Source of the DNA: an uncultured Bacteroidales bacterium
GTDB lineage: Bacteria; Bacteroidota; Bacteroidia; Bacteroidales; WCHB1-69
DNA: 32,000 bases
Direction of reading: 5' to 3'
NCBI GenBank assembly: GCA_937901925.1
Contig: CALGTS010000016.1
Location: forward strand, 1-32,000
Below are positions 1-13,552 of this stretch, one piece after another. Within the stretch, counting starts at the first letter, position 1. Every line of letters begins with the position of its first letter. The notes beneath the pieces are model-generated. The model worked only from the letters and a program-made list of their open reading frames with translations, searched no databases and was not told where the DNA came from. Position numbers and translations under genes: made by a program.

Positions 1-34
1 ATTATAAAATTACTCGCAAATGTCAAAAAAAATA

Positions 35-42
35 TATCTTTG
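35..42 (+). promoter_or_regulatory. Bacteroidetes-type -7 promoter box (TAtcTTTG)
   Basis: Exact match to the TAnnTTTG -7 consensus of Bacteroides primary-sigma promoters, about 65 nt upstream of the ATG at 108. Confidence 0.35.
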
Positions 43-107
43 CACAAACAATTTTCACACACTTTTTGGGACAGTATCGATATTAAATTGTTAAAAATAG
101 GAAAGTT

Positions 108-923
108 ATGAGAAAAGTCACATTTGAAACTCTTAATCCTTCTTCAAAAATTTTCGAAGTGTTGAACAACAACAATTTTGCGTGGTGGGAAAGATTTAAA
201 TCGGAATCAAGTTTTTATATTGAAGTCCGCAAAGACAATCAAATTAACGTATATCATGAAGGCGGCAATGTTGTTAGATTACATTATTGCTCTAAAAGGA
301 ATGTATTACAAGCATTTACTCATTGTAAATATTTAGGGCGCGAAGAATTGAAGAATAAATACCTAAATTGTATTGATATTTTAGATGCAGAAATAGACAA
401 TATTGTATCAAGAATTAAAGGAATATATTCAGAGAAGAATGGTGTTAATAAAGAAAAATGGAGTGAAAAATATATTCAAGGTCGCCTAATTGAAAACGGA
501 CGTACAAAATATATTGATTCCGAATTTGCTTACAAAAATGAAGAAACTGATATTCGTATTGATTTGATAGAATGCGTTAATGGAGAGATTCGTTTTGTGG
601 AATTAAAAAGATTGGATGATGATAGAATGTTGAAAAAAACGGATGACAATCCTAAAGTTATTACGCAAATGAAGAACTACAAACAGTTCGCTATCAAAAA
701 TAGAGAGGATATTTTGAAATATTACAATAAGATTTATGAGATTAAACAATCATTAAAGTTGCCTTTGCCAGCACAAAAACCTGTTTCAATATGTGTAGAA
801 CCATTATTGATAATTTTTAACCGATGGGAAAAACCACATAGCAAACGAGATAATCATCGTCAGCGTATGGAGGAAAAGTTAAAAAGAGAAAAGATTGATT
901 ATATTATTATCGATGAAATTTAA
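108..923 (+). CDS. Hypothetical protein with PD-(D/E)xK nuclease-like motif
   Basis: Clean 271-aa ORF in AT-rich DNA. 'RIDLIE...RFVELKR' fits the hhhD...hhhExK nuclease pattern. The N-terminal 'LNNNNFAWW' resembles 'LNNIVWW' of the next ORF. No named family recognised. Confidence 0.75.
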   Translation: MRKVTFETLNPSSKIFEVLNNNNFAWWERFKSESSFYIEVRKDNQINVYHEGGNVVRLHYCSKRNVLQAFTHCKYLGREELKNKYLNCIDILDAEIDNIVSRIKGIYSEKNGVNKEKWSEKYIQGRLIENGRTKYIDSEFAYKNEETDIRIDLIECVNGEIRFVELKRLDDDRMLKKTDDNPKVITQMKNYKQFAIKNREDILKYYNKIYEIKQSLKLPLPAQKPVSICVEPLLIIFNRWEKPHSKRDNHRQRMEEKLKREKIDYIIIDEI

Positions 924-1009
924 GATGTTATGACACAATTTAAGTTTCTTCAAAGAGACAAAAAATTGAGTTATAGAGATTACATAATCGCTAAAGATTT
1001 TTAAGAATT

Positions 1010-2002
1010 ATGGAAAATCAAAATAATAAATATTTACAAACAGAATATAAAGCACAACAAGAAAAGAAACAGCGAAAGTTAATGAAATCCAAATCCTTTG
1101 TATTTGATAACGCAGAAGGAGAACCTTTCTATTTACAAGATGAGCAATGCTGGCGACCTTCTTCAAAGGTTATCAGTCGTCGCGAGAGTGTCAAAAATTT
1201 ATTCAAAAACATAAGAAAGGATGCTCTTTTGTATTTTGAACTAAATAATATCGTATGGTGGAAACAATACGAGGATTTATATTTCCCTAATGGAAATACT
1301 CTCTCTTCACAAATTCATTGTCTTAATCACTTGTTTGCCATACGAGCAGACCACGATGCAGTGCTTAAAATTATTCAAACAATTCTACCAGATATTGCCG
1401 AAATAGAAGTTTCGCCAATTGATGAAAAGTTTTGCATCATGGACAAATATCCATACAAAACACCTTCGTATATATCATTCGAATTCACATACAATAACAA
1501 AGAACTGCTCCGTGAGCGATGCAATCAAAGAGGTGCTAATTGCACTTCGGTAGATGCTTTTGTATATGCAGTAAACAAAGAAAAAAAACACATTCTCATT
1601 GCTATTGAATGGAAATATACAGAAGCATACAAAAAAACAAATGATAATAAAGCTGATGATGCAACTATTGAAAACCGTTACCGCTCACTTGCTGAAAATA
1701 GTTCTATTCTTGGTGGCTGGAAAGATTTGTACAATTGGGATCCTCAATATGAATTGACTCGACAAACATTACTGATGGAACAGATTATTTCTAACAAACC
1801 ATTCGATGCAGACGATTATCGACATATTGTCGTTTGTCCAAATGATAATACAGAAATGATGGAAGAAGCTAAGACTTTTAAAGATTCTTTGAAAGACAAA
1901 TCCAAATTCCTCATCATCGACCCCCAATCCCTCCTTTCCCCGCTCGAAAGCAATGCCAAATACAAAGATCTCATCACCTATCTAAAAACCCGCTACTGGT
2001 AA
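1010..2002 (+). CDS. Hypothetical protein with PD-(D/E)xK nuclease-like motif
   Basis: 330-aa ORF. 'SVDAFVYAV...ILIAIEWKYTE' fits D...ExK. The last ~30 codons lie in visibly GC-richer DNA. The stop is 4 nt before the WYL gene ATG. Confidence 0.75.
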   Translation: MENQNNKYLQTEYKAQQEKKQRKLMKSKSFVFDNAEGEPFYLQDEQCWRPSSKVISRRESVKNLFKNIRKDALLYFELNNIVWWKQYEDLYFPNGNTLSSQIHCLNHLFAIRADHDAVLKIIQTILPDIAEIEVSPIDEKFCIMDKYPYKTPSYISFEFTYNNKELLRERCNQRGANCTSVDAFVYAVNKEKKHILIAIEWKYTEAYKKTNDNKADDATIENRYRSLAENSSILGGWKDLYNWDPQYELTRQTLLMEQIISNKPFDADDYRHIVVCPNDNTEMMEEAKTFKDSLKDKSKFLIIDPQSLLSPLESNAKYKDLITYLKTRYW

Positions 2003-2006
2003 CCCT

Positions 2007-2918
2007 ATGACCCCGACCAACCTTTTCAACCGCTACCTCTGGCTTTTGGAGAAACTTTCCCCTAACCGTAGGCTCACCAAGGAGGAGATAGACCGGCTTT
2101 GGGAAATGTCTTCCCTCAACAAAAATGGCGAGAAGGTGATTCCGCGCCGCACGTTCGCACGGATGCGCGATGCCATAGATGAACTGTTCGGCATCCGCAT
2201 TGCCTGCGACCGCTCCAACAACGTCTATTACATCGCAGACAATCTGGAAGAACAGACCCAGAATGTCCGAAAGTTCCTGCTCTCCGCCTTCTCCGTGAAT
2301 CACCTGCTGCGCGAGAACCAGGACATGATGCCCCGCATCCTGATGGACAATGTGTCAACCGGTGGCAACGCTTTTCTGCAGGAGATCACAGCCGCCATGC
2401 GCGACAACCGCCGCATCGCCATTACCTACCAGAGTTTTGAAATGCGACAGGTTCGCGAGTTTGAGGTTTGCCCGTATGCCCTCCGCTACGCCAATCATCG
2501 CTGGTATCTGCTCGCCAAAACCGACTTCCACACCGCATTGCGTCTTTACGCCCTCGACCGTATGAGTGCAGTTGTGGTCACGAACAAAAACTTCAGTCTC
2601 CCCAAGGACTTTGATGCTTCATACTATTTCTCCCTTTTCTTCGGAGCGATGATTACCGATGCCAATGTAGAGACTATCCGTCTGAAAGCCAGTGATTTTC
2701 GAACGCCCTATCTCCGTTCACTACCCTTGCACCATAGCCAGAAAGAGATCCGTCCCGGTGAGTTTGAACTGCACCTTGTCCCCACCCCCGACTTTCTGCA
2801 AGCCCTGCGTTCCATCGGTCCGGACATTGAAATCACACATCCGAAATGGTTGCGGAAACAGTTCTTGGACGAGGCACGGACGCTGATAAAACGATACGGT
2901 AACAAAGAACTGCCCTAA
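2007..2918 (+). CDS. WYL-domain transcriptional regulator (paralog A), C-terminal tail apparently frameshifted
   Basis: N-terminal wHTH-like region followed by the 'ANHRWYLLAKTD...LYALDRM' WYL signature. Alignable along its length with the ORF at 12584..13552. GC-rich. A conserved tail continues out of frame (see 2890..3036). Confidence 0.8.
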   Translation: MTPTNLFNRYLWLLEKLSPNRRLTKEEIDRLWEMSSLNKNGEKVIPRRTFARMRDAIDELFGIRIACDRSNNVYYIADNLEEQTQNVRKFLLSAFSVNHLLRENQDMMPRILMDNVSTGGNAFLQEITAAMRDNRRIAITYQSFEMRQVREFEVCPYALRYANHRWYLLAKTDFHTALRLYALDRMSAVVVTNKNFSLPKDFDASYYFSLFFGAMITDANVETIRLKASDFRTPYLRSLPLHHSQKEIRPGEFELHLVPTPDFLQALRSIGPDIEITHPKWLRKQFLDEARTLIKRYGNKELP

Positions 2919-3036
2919 ACGAAGCTTGAATGTGGTACGAATTTTTCCAGAGGAAACCCATGAGTTGTTCGCCAAGACCGAGCAGTTCGCAAAACTGAGA
3001 TACGAAGGGTATAAGAAATTAAATGACGGAAAATAA
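2890..3036 (+). other. Out-of-frame conserved C-terminal coding remnant of WYL gene A
   Basis: This frame is open from 2890. Its last 23 codons (2968..3036, FAKTEQFAKLRYEGYKKLNDGK*) match 13477..13545 codon for codon, with 6 synonymous differences including aga/cgt (Arg) and tta/ctc (Leu). It contains no start codon. Confidence 0.55.
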
Positions 3037-3050
3037 AATCATCCGTGTCC

Positions 3051-3093
3051 GTAGGGGCGAATAATTGAGGGGCGAATAATTATTCGCCCCTAC
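3051..3093. repeat. REP-like element: half-site plus perfect palindrome GTAGGGGCGAATAATTATTCGCCCCTAC
   Basis: 'gtaggggcgaataattg' is followed by 'aggggcgaataattattcgcccctac'. The same palindrome recurs at 3570..3597 inside the adjacent Y1-transposase gene. Confidence 0.8.
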
Positions 3094-3157
3094 CCATCCC
3101 CAAACCGGACGTGACCGAAATTCGATCATGCCCGTTTTTTTGTGTCGGAATATTTTG

Positions 3158-3165
3158 TATGTTTG
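3158..3165 (+). promoter_or_regulatory. -7 promoter box (TAtgTTTG) for the RAYT gene
   Basis: Exact TAnnTTTG match 30 nt upstream of the ATG at 3195. It lies inside the longer GTG-started ORF (3111), which argues for the 3195 start. Confidence 0.4.
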
Positions 3166-3194
3166 CAGGGAATGAAAACAATTTTATAAACAAT

Positions 3195-3830
3195 ATGAAA
3201 ACGAAGAGATATCATCGTCGATCCATCCGTCTGAACGGATATGATTACGTCCAAAATGGGAATTATTTCCTGACCATATGTTCACGAAACAGAGAATGTC
3301 TCTTTGGGGATGTTCGCGATGGCAAAATGTATCTGTTAAATTATGGATGGCTGGTGAACGAATGCTGGCAGGAAATCCCGGCACATTTTCCGCAAATTGT
3401 TTTGCATGAATACGTTATCATGCCAAACCACGTGCATGGCATTATCGAAATCAACAACCCGCAATCCACGGGTGCAAATACGGGTATGTGTACGGATACC
3501 GTGAATGTAGGGGCGAATATCGTGGATGTAGGGGCGAATGTCGTGGATGTAGGGGCGAATGTCGTGGATGTAGGGGCGAATAATTATTCGCCCCTACGGA
3601 CCCCGCAATCCCGTCCCCATGGCACATCCCGAACGGTGGGTTCCGTGGTGCGCGGATTCAAAATCGGGGTGACCAAACAAATGGGATTTTCCCCGTGGCA
3701 ACGCAATTATTACGAACACATCATCCGAAATGATGAATCGTATCAAAACATTGTCCAATACATGGCGCAAAACCCGCTAAAATGGAAGGAGGATTATTTC
3801 TATTTTGGAATCAACGGTGCATCAATATGA
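3195..3830 (+). CDS. REP-associated tyrosine (Y1/HUH) transposase, IS200-like (RAYT)
   Basis: 'RSIRLNGYDY...YFLTICSRNRECLFG', the HUH motif 'MPNHVHGII' and the catalytic Tyr region 'WQRNYYEHIIRN' are typical of RAYT/IS200-TnpA-like proteins. REP palindromes are adjacent and internal. Confidence 0.85.
   Translation: MKTKRYHRRSIRLNGYDYVQNGNYFLTICSRNRECLFGDVRDGKMYLLNYGWLVNECWQEIPAHFPQIVLHEYVIMPNHVHGIIEINNPQSTGANTGMCTDTVNVGANIVDVGANVVDVGANVVDVGANNYSPLRTPQSRPHGTSRTVGSVVRGFKIGVTKQMGFSPWQRNYYEHIIRNDESYQNIVQYMAQNPLKWKEDYFYFGINGASI
3507..3597 (+). repeat. In-frame 21-bp tandem repeat (3 units) ending in the 28-bp REP palindrome
   Basis: Units at 3507-3527, 3528-3548 and 3549-3569 (gtaggggcgaat[a/g]tcgtggat), then gtaggggcgaataattattcgcccctac at 3570-3597. 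Together they encode VGANIVD VGANVVD VGANVVD VGANNYSPL between the HUH and Tyr motifs. Confidence 0.95.
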
Positions 3831-4227: not shown

Positions 4228-7200
4228 ATGAAAAAAGGAATGATTACATTTTTAGCGATTTTATGGGCATTCTCTCTTGCGAATGCCCAAACCGTAACGC
4301 TGACTTTCACGGGACGTGATGCCAGCAGCCAACACGTGCAACTCCATCGAGTATGTGTTACAAACCTCACAAGAGGTTGGCAAGAAACCATTTATTGGCC
4401 CGACACAACATTGTCGATGCAAAACAGTACGGGAATAAGCGAGAACGGGTTGGGAGAAGGTTTCTCTTTGGCACAAAATGTACCCAATCCCTTTTCCGGA
4501 GAAACCGAGGTGATTATGGTCACAGATGCAACTGGTGAAGTTTTTCTTACAGTGAGCGATGTTACGGGCAAGTCCGTTGCTGTTTTTTCGAGGATGTTGG
4601 AACCAGGCGGGCACCATTTTCGGATACGTTTGGCGGTTGCGCAAACCTACATCCTCACCGCCCGGCAAGGTGCAAGGAGTGCCTCCGTTAAAATGGTGAA
4701 CAAGGGTACGTCAAAGGGCAATGAAATCCTCTACGAGGGAAGTGGGAATCCCATCTCCTATACATTGAAGTCCAGCACCACGCATCCCTTCACCTTTGGC
4801 GACCAAATGGAATATGTGGGCTATGCTGTCATCAATGGCAGTGAAGAGGAGAGCCAGCGCATCACCCAGGCGCAAGGCGCTTCACAGACATTTGTGATGC
4901 AATTTCAGGGAGAGCAACACAGATTGCCGACAGTTATTACAAGTGCGGTAACGGAAATAACGGAAAACTCTGCTTTATGCGGGGGGAGTGTTACGGATGA
5001 AGGTAGCGGTGCAGTGACGGGAAGAGGTGTGTGCTGGGGCACATCTCATAATCCTACCATAAATGACAGCTTGACCGCAGAAGGTTCTGGCATTGGCTCT
5101 TTCACGAGTAATATTACGGAATTGGAATCCTCCACAACGTATTATGTCCGAGCTTACGCCACGAATAATGTGGGAACGGCGTATGGGCAAGAAATTGCTT
5201 TTACAACAGTGGATGAAATATTGCCATCAGTGACGGGAAATATCACCTATAATCAGTACACATGCGTACATATTGCAGGATCTGTTGACTATGAGGGAAG
5301 CAGCCCGGTTTTGGAAAAAGGCGTATGTTGGTCAACCTCACCTAATCCTACAATTGCCGATAACTATATGAGTTTTGGTGGTGGTGTCGGATCTTATAGT
5401 TGTTCTATAACAGATTTGAACCCTGAAACAAGATACTATTTTTCAGTGTATGCCAGAAATAATGCGGGAATAACCTGTGGACCTGTGAATGGAGGAGGCT
5501 ATGACGGATCTGTGACAACAGGTTATTATCCTACTCCTTATTTTGACAACATTAGTAATCCGACTGTTATTGATGAAAGCACCATGCAGATTTCGTTTGA
5601 TGTAACATGGTATCCAACTACTTATTGCAGAGATTCTATTGTTGAAAAAGGTTTCTGCTGGACCACTTCGAATAGTCACTACTACCAATCACCCACTCTT
5701 TCTGATAATTACATCTCATTGGGGGCTGGAGAAGGAAGTGTGACATATACCATGACAGGTCTAACGCCGAATGTTTATTATCACTTCCGTCCCTACGCTA
5801 TCACAACGGCAGGAGTGACATTTTATGGCAGCACTTTCTTCAAAAAAATAATCTTGCACACTCCGCAAGTCAGTACAGCCAGCGTGAGCGACATCACAGA
5901 TATATCGGCTGTGTGTGGCGGCAACGTAACAGGTACGGGCACAAATCAATTTGACGCTGTCGTAACGGCGCGAGGCGTATGTTGGAGCACTTCTCATAAT
6001 CCTACTATTGCAGATAGTCATACCTCTGATGGCAGTGGCACGGGCAGTTTCACAAGCAGTATTACAGGGCTTGCACCCGGCACAACGTATTATGTTCGGG
6101 CGTATGCGACAAACAGTATTGGGACAGCTTATGGAAACGAGGTGAATTTCACGACGGCTGTACCCGTCATTTTGCCTTCAGTGACAACTTCGCCCGTATT
6201 AAACATCACGGAGCATGCGGCATCTTGCAGCGGCAACGTCATTTCCGATGGGGGTACAACAGTTACGGGAAGAGGAGTATGTTGGAGCACTTCCCATAAT
6301 CCCACTATTGTAGATAACCATACTTATGGCGGCAGTGGTACGGGCAATTTTGACTGTATCATCTCAGGACTCGCATCTGGAACGACGTATTACGCACGAG
6401 CGTTTGCAATCAATAATATAGGGGTGGCGTATGGTGGTGAATTGGAATTCACTACCCTCCAGGTGCAATCATGTCCCAACATACCAACAGTTACCGACTA
6501 TGACGGTAACACATACAATACGGTACAAATTGGCAACCAATGTTGGATGAAAGAAAACTTGCGCACCACGCATTATGCAGATGGCACTGCTATCACACTT
6601 GCCCAAGGTAGTGGGAGTTCGAATACCATCCCATTTTATTACACGAACAACGGCGGCTACCACTATTATAATTGGCCGGCAGCGAAAGGATGGGGTTCTG
6701 ACGGTGTGAATTCAATATGCCCAGAGGGATGGCATGTGCCAAGTGCTGAGGAGTGGTTGCTGTTAATTCAATATGTAAGAAGCCAAAGCCAATATGCCTG
6801 TGATAATAACTATGCGTATATTGCAAAAGCATTAGCATCTACATCTTCAGTTTGGTCTAATAGTACAGATTACTGTGCAGTGGGCAACAATGAAATCCTC
6901 AACAATGGTACGGGTTTTAGTGCAATGCCTGCTGGAATTTTTGGGAATAATGGGAATAATTGGTCTTCTGTTGCAATTGCTACATTTTGGTCTGCAACAG
7001 GGGAAATAGGAACAACATCGCTTGCAAACGCCATGAAGATTTACTACAATAGCCCTACTGTAGATATTTCATCATATGATAAAAGTGTTGGTCTTGCCAT
7101 TCGCTGTCTCCGTGACGGTACTTCTTCGGCTGGATTACCCACTGTCATTACTAATTCGATGAGTGATATTTCTGAAACGACTGCCACATGTGGCGGTAAT

Positions 7201-8097
7201 ATAGTATCAGACGGTGGAACACCTGTCACCTCTCGTGGTGTATGTTGGTCAACCTCACCTAATCCTACAATAAATGACTTTCATACTAATAATGGAATAG
7301 GCATAGGGAGTTTTATTAGCAACATCACGGGACTTACTCATGGCACTACCTATTATGCACGTGCATACGCCACTAATGCTAATGGGACTTCTTACGGCGC
7401 AGAGGTGACTTTTACAACCTCCATAACATGTGGAGTACACACGGTAAGTGATTATGATGGAAACGAATATAATACAGTACAGATTGGTGACCAATGTTGG
7501 ATGAAAGAGAATATGCGAACCACGCACTTCGCTGACGGCAGGACTATTGCACAAGCAACTGTTTCCCAATATTCTTCCAGTGATCCTTATTATTACAATC
7601 CTGGCTTTGACACGGAGTACGGTTTTTTTTACAATTGGATTGCCATGACTTATGCCACATCTACCAGTGGCTGGGATCCGAGCGGTGTGCGACAAGGTGT
7701 CTGTCCGATGGGTTGGCATGTTCCAAGCGATAGTGAGTGGACAGAATTGACACAGTATGTGGGAAGCCAAAGTCAATACAGATGTGGTAACAACAACACC
7801 TATATTGCTAAAGCCTTGGCGAGTACTACTGGATGGGATGTTCACGTAACAAACACTTGTCACGTAGGCTATTTGCAAAGTGGAAACAATGCCACTGGTT
7901 TCAGTGCCTTGCCGGCAGGTAGTTACCTGCATATGGGTAGCTTTTTCAATTCATCTTATTATGCCAATTTTTGGAGTGCTACCGAAAACAGCAGTACGCA
8001 TGGAATCAGGTGGTATTTGGTATATTTTTCTCCGAATATAAACAGCGACACATGTGCTAAAGCTAATGCCTATTCCGTCCGCTGCCTCCGCGATTAA
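4228..8097 (+). CDS. Large secreted repeat protein: signal peptide, N-terminal T9SS-CTD-like domain, six ~90-aa Ig/FN3-like repeats, two FISUMP (Fibrobacter succinogenes major paralogous) domains
   Basis: Signal peptide 'FLAILWAFSLANAQ'. 'LAQNVPNPFSGETEV...LEPGGHHFRI...TYILTA...VKMV' matches the T9SS sorting-domain pattern. The repeats carry 'RGVCWSTSHNPTI...TTYYVRAYATN..GTAYG'. 'GNQCWMKENLR...GWHVPS..EW...FSA.PAG...FWSAT...RCLRD' occurs twice (about 6472-7116 and 7429-8094). Confidence 0.85.
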   Translation: MKKGMITFLAILWAFSLANAQTVTLTFTGRDASSQHVQLHRVCVTNLTRGWQETIYWPDTTLSMQNSTGISENGLGEGFSLAQNVPNPFSGETEVIMVTDATGEVFLTVSDVTGKSVAVFSRMLEPGGHHFRIRLAVAQTYILTARQGARSASVKMVNKGTSKGNEILYEGSGNPISYTLKSSTTHPFTFGDQMEYVGYAVINGSEEESQRITQAQGASQTFVMQFQGEQHRLPTVITSAVTEITENSALCGGSVTDEGSGAVTGRGVCWGTSHNPTINDSLTAEGSGIGSFTSNITELESSTTYYVRAYATNNVGTAYGQEIAFTTVDEILPSVTGNITYNQYTCVHIAGSVDYEGSSPVLEKGVCWSTSPNPTIADNYMSFGGGVGSYSCSITDLNPETRYYFSVYARNNAGITCGPVNGGGYDGSVTTGYYPTPYFDNISNPTVIDESTMQISFDVTWYPTTYCRDSIVEKGFCWTTSNSHYYQSPTLSDNYISLGAGEGSVTYTMTGLTPNVYYHFRPYAITTAGVTFYGSTFFKKIILHTPQVSTASVSDITDISAVCGGNVTGTGTNQFDAVVTARGVCWSTSHNPTIADSHTSDGSGTGSFTSSITGLAPGTTYYVRAYATNSIGTAYGNEVNFTTAVPVILPSVTTSPVLNITEHAASCSGNVISDGGTTVTGRGVCWSTSHNPTIVDNHTYGGSGTGNFDCIISGLASGTTYYARAFAINNIGVAYGGELEFTTLQVQSCPNIPTVTDYDGNTYNTVQIGNQCWMKENLRTTHYADGTAITLAQGSGSSNTIPFYYTNNGGYHYYNWPAAKGWGSDGVNSICPEGWHVPSAEEWLLLIQYVRSQSQYACDNNYAYIAKALASTSSVWSNSTDYCAVGNNEILNNGTGFSAMPAGIFGNNGNNWSSVAIATFWSATGEIGTTSLANAMKIYYNSPTVDISSYDKSVGLAIRCLRDGTSSAGLPTVITNSMSDISETTATCGGNIVSDGGTPVTSRGVCWSTSPNPTINDFHTNNGIGIGSFISNITGLTHGTTYYARAYATNANGTSYGAEVTFTTSITCGVHTVSDYDGNEYNTVQIGDQCWMKENMRTTHFADGRTIAQATVSQYSSSDPYYYNPGFDTEYGFFYNWIAMTYATSTSGWDPSGVRQGVCPMGWHVPSDSEWTELTQYVGSQSQYRCGNNNTYIAKALASTTGWDVHVTNTCHVGYLQSGNNATGFSALPAGSYLHMGSFFNSSYYANFWSATENSSTHGIRWYLVYFSPNINSDTCAKANAYSVRCLRD

Positions 8098-8127
8098 CAT
8101 AAAAATTCAATAAATATGGGAGGCAGC

Positions 8128-8154
8128 CGAAAATCCCTCAAAGAGTAGGCGAAA
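8128..8154 (+). repeat. Cassette leader repeat, copy 1
   Basis: 'cgaaaatccctcaaagagtaggcgaaa' here versus 'cgaaaatccctcaatgagcaggcaaaa' at 9746-9772. Each lies a few tens of nt upstream of a low-GC nuclease gene. Confidence 0.55.
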
Positions 8155-8172
8155 GAATAAAAATCTATTATT

Positions 8173-9168
8173 ATGACGAATAATAAATCAACCCAAAGTA
8201 ACACACCGAGTAAATTTTTTAAACTACCATACAATATGGATGGTAACAGCTGTACAACACTTTTTAAGCACGGGTATTTCAATTTCCCTATAAAAGAATA
8301 TAATGGATTGGGACGAAACAAAGAACATTGTCTTGGCAGTTATACATTATTCGTTGCAAAGGATGTAAAGGAAAAGTATGCGAAAGACGGCTTCATAAGC
8401 GAAATACTTAACATGATTGATAATGACAAGGTTCAAATAAGAATATTTACTTCTCCTTACAAAAGGGGAGGCAAGAAAGGAGAGGTCGTTCGTTGTGCTA
8501 TCGATTATATCTTTTTGCAACAAATCAAAAAACTGTTTGTCAGTACTCTGGCTTATCTATATGCAAAAAAAGATGTTCCAGAAATGGAATCCATGGAGTT
8601 TACTTTCGACTATTCGGACTTGGAAGCCAGAACAGTCTCTTTGTCTTCTTTGAATTTATATACACCATTGGACAACCCTTTTTTTGAGTATGCGAGAAAT
8701 TATGCCTCTTTCCTTTCTTTGGAAGACATCAGTTCTGGAAAACTGAAAACACAAGATGACTCTGAAAGAAACGATTTCTACAAACCCGAACTACTGTCAC
8801 CGTGGAAAACGGCGGATAACATTGACAAAGATAAATCTTATTTATTAGATATTCCAGGAATATATATGCTGTATAATTCTAACAACAACAATTTCTATAT
8901 CGGCAAATCCAAAAACCTTTTGCAACGCATCAAGAAACATTATGATGACGAAAACGATCCGTCATACGGGTTCACACATTACCGCTACAGTATAATCCAA
9001 AGCGAATATTTTGATGTTTTAGACTTGATTGAGAACGCTGCCATACATGATGTAGCATGGATTTTGAATATGCCAGAATCAAAAAGATATAAAAAAGCGC
9101 TTTCTACTTTTGCTGATATAAACAACTGCATAATGACAAATAAGATAGAACGTCAAACAAAGAAATAA
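8173..9168 (+). CDS. GIY-YIG nuclease-domain protein (C-terminal) with an uncharacterised N-terminal region
   Basis: 'IPGIYMLYNSNNNNFYIGKSKNLLQRIKKHY' gives GIY-x10-YIG plus the conserved Arg, with a downstream 'LIENAAIHD' Glu. Visibly low-GC ORF. Confidence 0.75.
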   Translation: MTNNKSTQSNTPSKFFKLPYNMDGNSCTTLFKHGYFNFPIKEYNGLGRNKEHCLGSYTLFVAKDVKEKYAKDGFISEILNMIDNDKVQIRIFTSPYKRGGKKGEVVRCAIDYIFLQQIKKLFVSTLAYLYAKKDVPEMESMEFTFDYSDLEARTVSLSSLNLYTPLDNPFFEYARNYASFLSLEDISSGKLKTQDDSERNDFYKPELLSPWKTADNIDKDKSYLLDIPGIYMLYNSNNNNFYIGKSKNLLQRIKKHYDDENDPSYGFTHYRYSIIQSEYFDVLDLIENAAIHDVAWILNMPESKRYKKALSTFADINNCIMTNKIERQTKK

Positions 9169-9284: not shown

Positions 9285-9683
9285 ATGAAAAAAAACGATC
9301 GCGCAGCATTGAGGTACCAGATACTGCTGATGCTGCAACAAAATGGACCTCTTACCGAAACGGAAATCACCCATCGGCTGGACGATATCATAGGAATGGA
9401 CGAAGAAGAACTAGACGAATGTTATGAAAATTGCCCTAACGACAAGGTGTTTTACAAATGTGTCGCAACCAACGAACAAGACCTAAAAGCGGCCGGATTA
9501 GTTGAGTTCTTCGGAAACTACGGTCTCTGCATCACAGATATCGGTGCCCGGGCACTGGTGGACAACGAGAAGACCAGACGAATTGAGTACGACTACCTTC
9601 TACAATTTCCGGAATACTGCAAATGGATAAAGAACTTCCGTGAAGGGACCAAAGGAACAAAAGAAATAATCGAAGAGTTTTAA
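9285..9683 (+). CDS. Small winged-helix protein resembling the N-terminal domain of Mrr-type restriction proteins
   Basis: 132 aa. 'RYQILLMLQQNGPLTETEI' and 'DLKAAGLVEFFGNYGLCITDIGARAL' fit the Mrr_N-like wHTH pattern as I recall it. No catalytic domain is present. Confidence 0.6.
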   Translation: MKKNDRAALRYQILLMLQQNGPLTETEITHRLDDIIGMDEEELDECYENCPNDKVFYKCVATNEQDLKAAGLVEFFGNYGLCITDIGARALVDNEKTRRIEYDYLLQFPEYCKWIKNFREGTKGTKEIIEEF

Positions 9684-9745
9684 TCATATTTTATGCACTG
9701 AAACGACAATCCAATAATGCGGATTCCGCAAACATGGACGAATAG

Positions 9746-9772
9746 CGAAAATCCCTCAATGAGCAGGCAAAA
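9746..9772 (+). repeat. Cassette leader repeat, copy 2
   Basis: See 8128-8154. A 14-nt identical core 'cgaaaatccctcaa' is followed by further matches. Confidence 0.55.
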
Positions 9773-9803
9773 AACAAGAACAAACAATAAAAAAACACTG
9801 ATT

Positions 9804-10940
9804 ATGGAACACAAATTGACAAAAACAGAAGTGAAATATGGTATTTTGGTCATTAAAGAGAAGGAAAACGGTATAGGATTGCCGTCATACTACCAACCGA
9901 TTACCATACATGATGTTGCAACAGGCAAAGAGTATAGCAAAAGAATGCATTTGTCTGTAAGAAATCGTATAGACGGCCTAACAAGCCTGTACAGAGCAAA
10001 CCTCGTTTCAGAAGGGGATGCGGTGAATCTGGAATTGGAAGGGAATGTGTTAAACGTTTCCTTTATAAAAAAGGAAGAGACCCAATTTCAGAAAAACCAA
10101 GATGAAATCGTCGAACAACGCGAGGTGTTGGAGAACCTTAAAGAAACCATTGAATCCGTCAGGGATATAATAACCAACCTGGAGTATCTTTTCTATCATA
10201 ACGAAACAAATGTGCGGATAGAAATTGTTGAACGGATTCTCAATGCTTTAAGATGGCACTTCCCCGAGCTTTCGCGGGAACAAAAAGGCAGAACAGGGAA
10301 ACGTGTCGATATTGCCCTCTATAAAAAGAACTACGACTATCTGAAATGCATGGCGCTGATTGAGGTGAAATCCATAGACAAGGATTTAGACGATGAAGAT
10401 ATTTTCCAACAGCTTCTTGGCTATTTGGATGATCCAAGATTTGATTCCGTACCGATAGGGATACTGACAAACGGGCGTATCTGGATGGCCTACGAAAGAA
10501 GCGGGGATCTGATTGGTTGTGTGGATTTTCTGTCGGACACGGATGAGGAACTCGCGAACTTTTTCGAATATTTGGAGTATGAGCGCATCGACGAGTTTGC
10601 CGATGCTAATTTTCCAGAACGGGAAAGAGACTATGATGGGAAAGACCGGCACAATATCGTGGTGGAATATGCCAAAAAGGGGAAGTTGTGTATGGACAAT
10701 TCAACTGAAACTTTCAAGGCCTTCATTATGGAGCATCTTGAAGATGTGCAGGAACTTCAAAACAACAATTATTTCCCCATTCCCATTTTGTCCGAAAAGG
10801 GAAATGAACTCCGTAATGCAAGCAAAGTAAGAGGAAAAAAACTATACATCACAGGGGATCATAGCACCTATTATAAGCTAATGCTGATCAAGCAGATTAT
10901 CAGCGATTGCGGGATAAAGGCCAAAGCATATCTTGAATAA
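9804..10940 (+). CDS. PD-(D/E)xK nuclease-motif protein with uncharacterised N- and C-terminal regions
   Basis: 'GKRVDIALYKKNYDYLKCMALIEVKSID' fits D...ExK and resembles HsdR-N/restriction-endonuclease-like cores. The ATG at 9804 is preferred because the 9717 start lies upstream of and reads through the leader repeat. Confidence 0.7.
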   Translation: MEHKLTKTEVKYGILVIKEKENGIGLPSYYQPITIHDVATGKEYSKRMHLSVRNRIDGLTSLYRANLVSEGDAVNLELEGNVLNVSFIKKEETQFQKNQDEIVEQREVLENLKETIESVRDIITNLEYLFYHNETNVRIEIVERILNALRWHFPELSREQKGRTGKRVDIALYKKNYDYLKCMALIEVKSIDKDLDDEDIFQQLLGYLDDPRFDSVPIGILTNGRIWMAYERSGDLIGCVDFLSDTDEELANFFEYLEYERIDEFADANFPERERDYDGKDRHNIVVEYAKKGKLCMDNSTETFKAFIMEHLEDVQELQNNNYFPIPILSEKGNELRNASKVRGKKLYITGDHSTYYKLMLIKQIISDCGIKAKAYLE

Positions 10941-12487: not shown

Positions 12488-12555
12488 GGATGCGTTGGGC
12501 GAGAGTTTAATATGGAATATTATAGATCTGAGGCCATTGCTGTTGGAAATAGTTG

Positions 12556-12563
12556 TATTTTTG
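12556..12563 (+). promoter_or_regulatory. -7 promoter box (TAttTTTG) for WYL gene B
   Basis: Exact TAnnTTTG match 21 nt upstream of the ATG at 12584. Confidence 0.35.
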
Positions 12564-12583
12564 CTGCATCAAAAAGTAAAAAT

Positions 12584-13552
12584 ATGGATAAGCTCAAGAA
12601 GTGCATCTGGATTGTCAACACGGTAGCGGCAGCTGGTGATGCGGGCATCACATTGACCGAACTCAACCGCAAGTGGACCGCCGACCCCGAGAAAGACCCT
12701 ATCCCATATCGCACTTTCCTCCGACTGCGGGACTACATTGCCAACGTTTTCGGCATTGACATCGATTGCGACAAGAGGTATAACGCCTACTATATCCCTT
12801 ATCGCGACGAGTTGTACGATGACAGACTGAAAATGTGGCTGCTCAACAGTTTCGCTATGCACAGTCGGCTGTCGGGCAATCTGGAACTTCGACGACGGGT
12901 GCGCTTTGAGGAAATTCCGGGTGGCAACCGATGGTTGGATCCTATCATGGAAGCTATGCAACAATTCAGCAAGATTTCATTCCTCTACCAAAAGGAGTAT
13001 GAAACAGAAAAAACTTCATACCCGAACTGTGCACCTTTGGCATTGAAACTCTTTAAGCAGCGGTGGTATCTGATAGCGGACAAGGGCGTGGGTGAAATAC
13101 GCTTTTTCGCCCTTGACCGCATAGCGGAAGTGAAATCCCTTGATGAGAAATTCCAGATACCCTCGGATTTCGATCTGGACGATCTCTTCCAGGATGCCTT
13201 TGGAATGTATGTGAATCCCGAAATCGCCACCGAACGTATTGTGGTAAAGGCAGACAGAGACCAAAGCCTCTACTTGATGAGTTTGCCGTTACACCACAGC
13301 CAGCAAATCATTGAAACAACGGATGATTACTCGATTTTCTCTTGGCGACTGAAACCTACATACGATTTCATCCAACAACTACTCACAATGAATCTACATA
13401 TTGAGGTTTTAGAGCCGTTGTCGTTGCGAACCAAGATTGCCGAATTACTGAAAAGTATGGCCAAGAAACATAACTCTTCGCCAACACCTCACAGTTCGCG
13501 AAAGCTCGTTACAAAGGCTACAAAAAACTCAATGAAGGAAAATAAAAATTGA
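12584..13552 (+). CDS. WYL-domain transcriptional regulator (paralog B), tail apparently frameshifted
   Basis: 'FKQRWYLIADKG...FFALDRI' WYL signature and 'LPLHHSQ' shared with paralog A. The last ~25 codons are out of frame relative to the conserved tail at 13477-13545. Confidence 0.8.
   Translation: MDKLKKCIWIVNTVAAAGDAGITLTELNRKWTADPEKDPIPYRTFLRLRDYIANVFGIDIDCDKRYNAYYIPYRDELYDDRLKMWLLNSFAMHSRLSGNLELRRRVRFEEIPGGNRWLDPIMEAMQQFSKISFLYQKEYETEKTSYPNCAPLALKLFKQRWYLIADKGVGEIRFFALDRIAEVKSLDEKFQIPSDFDLDDLFQDAFGMYVNPEIATERIVVKADRDQSLYLMSLPLHHSQQIIETTDDYSIFSWRLKPTYDFIQQLLTMNLHIEVLEPLSLRTKIAELLKSMAKKHNSSPTPHSSRKLVTKATKNSMKENKN

Follow-up and report, generated by a model that had tools for sequence, protein, structure and literature searches.

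Does a pair of nuclease-like genes placed immediately 5' of a gene for a WYL regulator, with no methyltransferase at hand, constitute a defence system, and how would such a system be organised? This question is raised by the first genes of a 32,000-nucleotide stretch from an uncultured Bacteroidales bacterium (assembly GCA_937901925.1, contig CALGTS010000016.1, positions 1 to 32,000 of the forward strand), hereafter referred to as the window. Two open reading frames, ORF1 and ORF2, and the WYL gene that follows them make up the cassette under study (Table 1). An earlier interpretation made from the letters alone (the sequence-only reading) had proposed a candidate uncharacterised two-gene defence system, in which two distantly related PD-(D/E)xK proteins are translationally coupled to a WYL regulator. 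The answer put forward here, which we hold to be somewhat better than an even chance from the genes and their relatives, is that the three genes would form one transcription unit for a WYL-gated, methylation-independent two-nuclease conflict module, directed against phages or mobile elements.

Table 1. Features of the cassette and of its 5' flank, in window coordinates (nt, nucleotides; aa, amino acids).
Feature	Position	Strand	Description
Candidate Bacteroidetes-type -7 promoter element TATCTTTG	35..42	+	fits TAnnTTTG; ~66 nt 5' of ORF1
ORF1	108..923	+	271 aa; unannotated family; N-terminal beta-rich domain (~1-110) and predicted C-terminal PD-(D/E)xK-type domain
ORF1-ORF2 spacer	924..1009	+	86 nt; left recombination breakpoint inside, ~933
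ORF2	1010..2002	+	330 aa; Pfam REase-ARP (PF22558) and PDDEXK_13 (PF20796)
Conserved, high-GC junction segment	1898..2006	+	last 105 nt of ORF2 and 4-nt spacer; breakpoints ~1898 and ~2000
WYL-WCX transcription-factor gene (WYL gene A of the sequence-only reading)	2007..2918	+	303 aa

Predicted nuclease families encoded by ORF1 and ORF2

By its profile matches, the ORF2 protein is of the PD-(D/E)xK type and is a clear member of the REase-ARP family: it matches PF22558 with an E-value of 1.2e-39 and 137 bits (cut-off 27) over model positions 27-270 of 270, and PDDEXK_13 with an E-value of 4e-22. The ORF2 family comprises 644 homologues. The motif 'VDAFVY..IAIEWK' corresponds to D182, E200 and K202, which, together with E158, are invariant in 41 homologues, and a C-terminal RYW is invariant in the family; a search of the PDB with the family profile retrieved no sequence relative. 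From the Pfam name and description, we infer that REase-ARP is the 'rapidly evolving' nuclease that was predicted to be an effector of WYL- or Nudix-regulated conflict systems (PMC9503650). This membership touches a point that the sequence-only reading itself had listed as potentially refuting, namely assignment to a known restriction-enzyme family: ORF2 falls into a Pfam restriction-endonuclease family that has already been described, though without experimental work, whereas the family of ORF1 is indeed unannotated. Some REase-ARP domains follow, in the same chain, an N-terminal domain other than ORF1, of about 150-250 residues and with D...E(L/V)K motifs (P0178, P0154 and P0198; here and below, Pnnnn labels homologous proteins and Lnnn related genome loci or contigs used in the comparisons). 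In general, members of this family seem to come with a further small domain that resembles a nuclease.

ORF1 has no above-threshold match in Pfam, NCBIfam, PHROGs or PADLOC. Its family is large nonetheless: 289 homologues are close, and clustering at 50% identity gives 887 clusters (E <=1e-3). Its motif 'RIDLIE..RFVELK' corresponds to D152, E165 and K167; these residues and E139 are invariant in 41 homologues, as well as in 30 locus-derived homologues of both architectures described below. The AlphaFold2 model of the protein (pLDDT 93, pTM 0.88) consists of an N-terminal domain (approximately residues 1-110), in which two helices and a beta-meander carry an invariant YIExRKDN stretch (invariant residues Y37, E39, R41, K42, N44 and H72), and of a C-terminal domain with an alpha-beta-beta-beta-alpha-beta arrangement that bears the E/D/ExK residues. 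In this model, D152 and E165/K167 are placed on successive strands, past the helix 120-130, as in a PD-(D/E)xK core. Foldseek matches to the model are weak; those that can be recognised belong for the most part to PD-(D/E)xK nucleases, including Card1, Can2, Cdn1, the Shedu nuclease domain (8ti9), McrC, Cas4, MGME1 and cap-snatching endonucleases; the closest solved relative could not be named with Foldseek against the PDB and BFVD, and a PDB sequence search with the family profile gave nothing useful. The prediction that ORF1 is of the PD-(D/E)xK type is supported by the invariant E/D/ExK residues, the confident model and these nuclease-type matches in combination. An identity of ORF1 with ARPP (PMC9503650) was considered and rejected. 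ARPP is described as a duplicated beta-meander into which a barrel bearing an invariant Cys and Gln is inserted, whereas in ORF1 no Cys is invariant and the core is of the nuclease type; the two are set apart by description only.

Both PD-(D/E)xK motifs quoted in the sequence-only reading are present and fall on family-invariant columns. A relaxed hD-hh...hhExK pattern is found in three of the 29 scanned window ORFs of at least 100 aa, the third being another nuclease candidate at 9717-10940, and it arises in ~3% of shuffles of either ORF1 or ORF2. The supposed distant relationship between the two proteins is not supported, as no relatedness beyond the superfamily is detectable (hhalign probability <1%). 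Specific homology was rejected on the basis of a BLASTP E-value of 0.04 and an hhalign probability of 0.5%, in which solely the YIDSEFAY/YISFEFTY strand, bearing the first catalytic Glu, was aligned. The N-terminal 'LNN..WW' element that they were thought to share is present and conserved within each family (W26/W27 in ORF1 and W83/W84 in ORF2), but it is not aligned as a common element by profile-profile comparison, and the WW elements stayed unaligned in a permissive hhalign run.

No methyltransferase domain is encoded by any of the 29 scanned window ORFs, in line with what the sequence-only reading had stated, or beside the cassette in related loci. The nearby cognate methyltransferase by which a type II restriction-modification system is recognised is thus missing from the cassette, and self-protection would therefore have to be achieved through repression or through the requirement for a non-self feature. 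One sub-variant of the defence reading, which we consider unlikely, is a type IV-like restriction enzyme, in which the N-terminal domain of ORF1 would recognise a modified base, or nucleic acid that is damaged or ADP-ribosylated, and bring in both nuclease sites, while the WYL protein would merely tune expression. The lack of a methylase is compatible with such an enzyme, and so is the layout of ORF1, with a conserved N-terminal domain followed by a putative C-terminal PD-(D/E)xK domain, a layout that is found in many type IV enzymes. Furthermore, Mrr_N-type genes lie close by, and REase-ARP appears to have been first seen in systems proposed to answer ADP-ribosylation (PMC9503650). However, the N-terminal domain of ORF1 matches no known reader fold (SRA, EVE, YTH or Mrr_N) by Pfam or Foldseek, the fast swapping detailed below hits the REase gene and not the putative reader, and an enzyme that is constitutively safe would have no obvious need for a WYL repressor.

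Linkage of ORF1 with nuclease genes across genomes

In the window, a REase-ARP gene directly follows ORF1, and the same order is seen in L001-3, L006, L008-10, L016, L029, L030, L036-41, L047-48 and L051-54. Both domains are, moreover, joined in one chain in L011 and L012 (582 aa) and in P0213, P0230, P0242, P0243, P0256, P0265, P0285, P0300 and P0327, and ten or more lineages have such a fusion. The fusion partner of the ORF1 domain in P0258 and P0315 is a metallo-beta-lactamase and RMMBL nuclease instead. ORF1 is complete in 27 species-level loci; 20 of these contain a REase-ARP, DUF6946 or c16-type nuclease gene within a few genes, and a WYL gene is present in 18. On the grounds of recurrent adjacency and gene fusion, ORF1 and REase-ARP are strongly linked in function, and the conserved co-occurrence of the pair, which the sequence-only reading had named as a check on its proposal, is found in many species. 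Chance adjacency of unrelated genes, or an ORF1 that is no nuclease, would sit well with the lack of a profile match for ORF1 and with Foldseek matches that are all above E = 0.001, but is very improbable: recurrence of the adjacency in many species, together with at least 11 independent fusions, largely refutes chance, the E/D/ExK residues of ORF1 are invariant, and their motif is expected in no more than the small share of shuffles given above.

A second architecture is found within L014-L028 (e.g., L022:5457-10113, and also L015, L017 and L019-L028). In this arrangement, a WYL gene is followed by genes encoding a DUF6946, c16, c38 or c197 protein, a small protein with sigma70 region 2 only, ORF1, and a metallo-beta-lactamase and RMMBL nuclease of 420 aa, the protein to which ORF1 is joined in P0258 and P0315. 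DUF6946 belongs to the Pfam nuclease clan (PMC10584680). It can be aligned, as can c16 and c177, with the D...ExKxxE core of ORF2, and c177 matches REase-ARP directly. In most relatives of the cassette, in turn, a HAD_SAK_2 phosphatase gene is located 5' of ORF1 (L001-3, L006, L036-41, L047 and L052/L054; L052:564-1560). This gene is absent from the window (1-107) and from L051 (1-186); homology to the HAD-containing loci begins at window position 79, and promoter-like sequence stands in the place of the HAD gene. The 'two-gene' description of the unit is therefore right as regards the linkage of ORF1 and ORF2 and too narrow otherwise, since the unit is larger and modular, with HAD_SAK_2 as a frequent fourth member and with ORF1 also accompanied by DUF6946-type and metallo-beta-lactamase nucleases. 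What is new here is the ORF1 family, which would serve as a hub for nucleases that can replace one another.

An AlphaFold2 model was also obtained for the natural fusion P0213, in which the domains are confident and the linker is disordered (pTM 0.58). Comparison of this model with the PDB by Foldseek gave weak matches only, among them Nt.BspD6I.

Small and highly divergent DnaE-like genes adjoin the WYL gene in ~12 of the 27 ORF1-anchored loci (L017:93-1195, L020:5288-6399, L025:5037-6121, L036:7030-9328 and L042:96-1355), and none is present in the window. Two types can be distinguished: the first, of ~170 aa, is 21-27% identical to the palm region of DnaE (407-523), and the second, of ~195 aa, has a DNA_pol3_finger domain, with a 465-aa version that contains DNA_pol3_alpha and finger domains. 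The PHP and C-terminal domains are missing from them, and their divergence is too great for recent remnants of dnaE. In L001-3, the cassette adjoins a full-length dnaE.

Mosaic evolution of the cassette

Comparison at the nucleotide level places recombination breakpoints at ~933, ~1898 and ~2000. In L047/L048, the ORF1 region (window 79-933) is ~97% identical in nucleotides, the body of ORF2 (934-1897) is unalignable in nucleotides and 45% identical in protein, and the 3' end of ORF2 together with the WYL gene (1898-3194) is again 89-93% identical in nucleotides. L052/L054 have ORF1 and ORF2 (to ~2000) at ~100% nucleotide identity each and the WYL gene at ~62%, among other chromosomal neighbours and with HAD_SAK_2 upstream. 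ORF1 of L006 is 98% identical in nucleotides (99% in protein), with protein identities of 49% for ORF2 and 55% for the WYL protein, and in L001 the nucleotide identities are 88% for ORF1 and 86% for ORF2, with 55% for the WYL protein. The last 29 residues of ORF2, including 'IIDPQSLLSPLESNAKYK.LITYL.TRYW', are found verbatim in P0180 and P0200 despite overall identities of 45-49%. The nuclease slot is also swapped beside a near-identical ORF1 in the second architecture, as seen in the comparison of L024 with L025 and of L022/26 with L027. ORF1, ORF2 and the WYL gene reassort as modules. An immune locus under diversification would be expected to show such a mosaic, in which the REase is the most variable module.

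A mobile and mosaic cassette might also be selfish, that is, an addiction or toxin-type module in which one nuclease is toxic and is held in check by its partner or by WYL repression, and which persists by post-segregational killing or by hitch-hiking in an island. The presence of two potentially toxic nucleases without a methylase, the plausibility of tight repression and the REP/RAYT element that adjoins the cassette could all be accommodated in this way. We nevertheless regard it as distinctly improbable, because the catalytic residues are intact in both ORF1 and ORF2, so that neither resembles an inert antitoxin, a stable ORF1-ORF2 fusion would be unusual for a toxin-antitoxin pair, and the cassette was not found in phages or plasmids, apart from one distant plasmid match to ORF2.

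Organisation and expression of the cassette

The three genes, and a WYL start 4 nt past the ORF2 stop, lie exactly where the sequence-only reading had placed them: the TAA at 2000-2002 is followed by CCCT and then by the ATG of the WYL gene at 2007. This junction is similarly tight, from a 4-nt gap to a 4-nt overlap, in L001, L006, L039, L048 and L049, and the ORF1-ORF2 spacer of relatives ranges from 6 nt down to a 4-nt overlap. The GC content is 29-35% across ORF1 and ORF2 versus 52% across the WYL gene, and the switch, as read by eye from the sequence, occurs at about position 1900, within the 3' end of ORF2; the sequence-only reading makes no mention of this shift.

TAnnTTTG is the consensus of the -7 element of Bacteroides promoters. 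The candidate element of Table 1 is its sole plus-strand match in window 1-3157, and the count of matches over the whole window is not above chance. No terminator-like hairpin was found in window 1-3300. A single promoter candidate and no internal terminator would fit, as weak evidence, one transcript for ORF1, ORF2 and the WYL gene. As for a WYL operator, nothing convincing in the way of inverted repeats was found in the 107 nt available 5' of ORF1.

The WYL regulator

The third gene does encode a WYL regulator, as the sequence-only reading had recognised, with Pfam matches to WYL over residues 123-190 (1.9e-16) and to WCX over residues 222-293 (4.5e-06), and a match to the PADLOC WYL model (1.9e-28). 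For the N-terminal winged helix-turn-helix (wHTH), there is no Pfam HTH match over residues 1-110. PDB sequence relatives of the protein are PafBC, which is the closest (1e-10), CapW, DriD and BrxR (E 0.02-0.7 for CapW and BrxR), and its 303 aa compare with 299 aa for CapW and 291 aa for BrxR. According to PMC11662680, PMC9122589 and PMC13622015, WYL-WCX regulators of such size control defence operons and sense single-stranded DNA (ssDNA), which is the demonstrated ligand for CapW and DriD.

The proximity to PafBC also lends itself to a reading outside immunity, namely a WYL-controlled DNA-damage or repair module akin to the PafBC and DriD regulons, in which the processing of damaged DNA ends would fall to the nucleases, the metallo-beta-lactamase nuclease, the HAD phosphatase and the DnaE-like proteins. 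DriD and PafBC govern damage responses, and relatives of the cassette contain HAD_SAK_2, metallo-beta-lactamase and RMMBL, and mini DnaE-like genes, or lie beside a full-length dnaE (L001-3). A patchy and mosaic distribution, replacement of nuclease alleles and the occurrence of an identical cassette in differing contexts are, on the contrary, hallmarks of conflict systems, and both the atypically low GC content of the cassette and its defence-type neighbours speak against a repair module, to which we assign a low probability.

Proposed function

In the WYL-gated two-nuclease conflict module favoured here, the WYL-WCX protein would keep the operon low in uninfected cells, and binding of an infection or damage signal, such as ssDNA, by its WYL domain would lead to derepression, by analogy with regulators of the CapW/BrxR type. 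ORF1 and ORF2 would then form one complex or enzyme with two different PD-(D/E)xK active sites. Within it, ORF2, as the REase-ARP component, would be a fast-diversifying effector or specificity subunit that provides target recognition or effector diversity, whereas ORF1 would be the conserved partner, contributing a ligand-binding N-terminal domain and an intact PD-(D/E)xK site of its own. Invading (or host) nucleic acid would then be cleaved by the two nucleases. Formation of a complex, the activity of the nucleases and its substrate, translational coupling, repression by the WYL protein and its ligand, and protection against phages are all parts of the scheme that we infer. The defence function proposed in the sequence-only reading is plausible, and comparison with related genomes strengthens it.

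A wider proposal, which is made tentatively and which we place somewhat below an even chance, is that the ORF1 family would be the conserved hub of immune modules that work independently of methylation, are widespread in Bacteroidales of the gut and rumen and have so far gone unrecognised. Within such a module, ORF1 would dock swappable nucleases (REase-ARP, DUF6946-type and metallo-beta-lactamase) by adjacency or fusion, the effector cassette would be exchanged at conserved junctions and the WYL protein would gate expression.

Several observations weigh against the conflict module. Regarding distribution, tblastn searches found neither ORF1 nor ORF2 in GenBank phages and, in plasmids, just one distant match to ORF2, on a Phenylobacterium plasmid whose annotation is uninformative. 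About one third of the ORF1 loci have no nearby WYL gene, and the same ORF1-ORF2 pair is found with very different WYL alleles, so that the WYL protein may regulate something more general. REase-ARP genes also occur without ORF1, either alone, as in L044-46 (L044:6001-6921), or with HAD_SAK_2 and WYL, as in L049/L050 (L049:2027-4838); ORF1 is a frequent but not obligatory partner of the REase-ARP family. With respect to structure, the best Foldseek E-values of the ORF1 model are 0.013 (PDB) and 0.003 (BFVD), and the P0213 model gives no confident geometry between the ORF1 and REase-ARP domains and thus no structural support for a complex. In PADLOC-DB v2.0, ORF1 and ORF2 match no family at E <=1, the WYL protein alone having a match; running PADLOC was among the checks suggested by the sequence-only reading, and its v2 models recognise neither nuclease. 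Neighbours that encode a HAD phosphatase, a metallo-beta-lactamase and DnaE-like proteins would be compatible with a role in DNA damage or repair as well. Finally, the literature search found no experimental work on the ORF1 family, REase-ARP, DUF6946, PDDEXK_13 or WYL-nuclease systems in Bacteroidales.

Much less is known about the defence repertoires of gut and rumen Bacteroidales than about those of E. coli or Bacillus. If the conflict module is real, it would represent a new effector architecture, with two different PD-(D/E)xK nucleases under WYL control and without a methylase, it would provide a function for the large unannotated family of ORF1 as well as for Pfam REase-ARP and DUF6946, and it would be a clean natural case of cassette-style swapping of nuclease subunits between conserved flanks. 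Natural test material is available in the form of fused versions, of identical nuclease pairs with different WYL alleles and of identical flanks with different nucleases.

Relation to known systems

The ARG-centred conflict systems (Iyer, Burroughs, Anantharaman and Aravind, Viruses 2022, PMC9503650) share the same effector family with the cassette, given the 137 bits of ORF2 on PF22558, which is presumably the family of the nuclease in that paper. Like the cassette, they have a WYL protein, as a one-component negative regulator, and show rapid modular evolution. They also have a coupled phosphatase; here, there is none in the window, and a HAD-type one is found in relatives. However, the ARG gene that defines these systems was not found in the window ORFs or in the Pfam lists of the related loci, so the cassette is not a member, and their rhodanese-phosphatase, chaperone and ARPP are likewise absent from the window and from the related loci examined. 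The constant partner of the cassette, the ORF1 family, is not described in PMC9503650, and the hosts are gut and rumen Bacteroidales here versus actinobacteria, planctomycetes and proteobacteria for the ARG-centred systems.

With the BrxR/CapW repressors (PMC9122589, PMC9122601 and PMC11662680), the WYL protein shares its size, its WYL and WCX domains and a gene position in or next to a defence-like operon. The similarity in sequence is marginal, PafBC being nearer; the repressor gene is the first of the operon in BrxR/CapW and the last in the cassette, and their N-terminal wHTH is not detected by Pfam in the WYL protein of the cassette.

In KELShedu/Shedu (PMC12577705), a WYL-like DNA-binding protein is paired with a nuclease that consists of an N-terminal domain and a PD-(D/E)xK DUF4263, a pairing similar to that of the cassette and equally without a methylase. 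The Shedu nuclease domain is among the weak Foldseek matches of ORF1, but DUF4263/SduA is not matched by ORF1 or ORF2 in Pfam or PADLOC at E <=1, and the cassette differs from KELShedu by its second nuclease (REase-ARP) and by its canonical WYL-WCX factor.

Heterodimeric restriction endonucleases such as R.BspD6I and BbvCI have two different catalytic subunits and come with cognate methyltransferases. The cassette likewise has two PD-(D/E)xK-type genes side by side, whose products plausibly act jointly, but no methyltransferase accompanies it and there is no significant similarity in sequence or structure to these enzymes.

Genomic neighbourhood

The cassette is carried on the chromosomes of uncultured Bacteroidales from the gut and rumen and of a few Firmicutes. 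In the window, it is followed on its 3' side by a RAYT gene, a Fib_succ_major surface protein gene, a GIY-YIG protein gene, an Mrr_N gene with the gene of a 407-aa protein, and a second WYL gene, and related loci carry HEPN-MNT, Fic, AAA_15/21 and NERD genes. Such a context resembles a defence island. Elsewhere, the window has housekeeping genes (pyrBI, ftsQAZ and GH97).

The GIY-YIG protein (8173-9168) has 331 aa and a C-terminal GIY-YIG nuclease motif, with weak PADLOC matches to PDC-S14 (a candidate system), a homing endonuclease and UzuA. At 9285-10940, an Mrr_N protein of 132 aa precedes the 407-aa protein, which contains VDIALY...ALIEVK and has a weak HSDR_N match; by these features, the two look like a split Mrr-like (type IV) nuclease. 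The second WYL-WCX gene is located at 12512-13552, 9.6 kb downstream. Between the two WYL genes, L051, which is 96-97% identical, has Mrr_N, NucS_C and a 515-aa gene, as opposed to Fib_succ_major and GIY-YIG in the window (4228-9165), and this difference in content makes the space between the WYL genes a variable island.

The ORF of the REP-associated tyrosine transposase (RAYT), at 3051-3830, is matched in two pieces with scores below the NCBIfam cut-off. Four tandem repeats of 21 nt lie inside it, and seven copies of the 12-mer GTAGGGGCGAAT are found within 3051-3597, on both strands, compared with 0.08 expected, which suggests that REP-like elements flank and interrupt the RAYT gene on the 3' side of the cassette.

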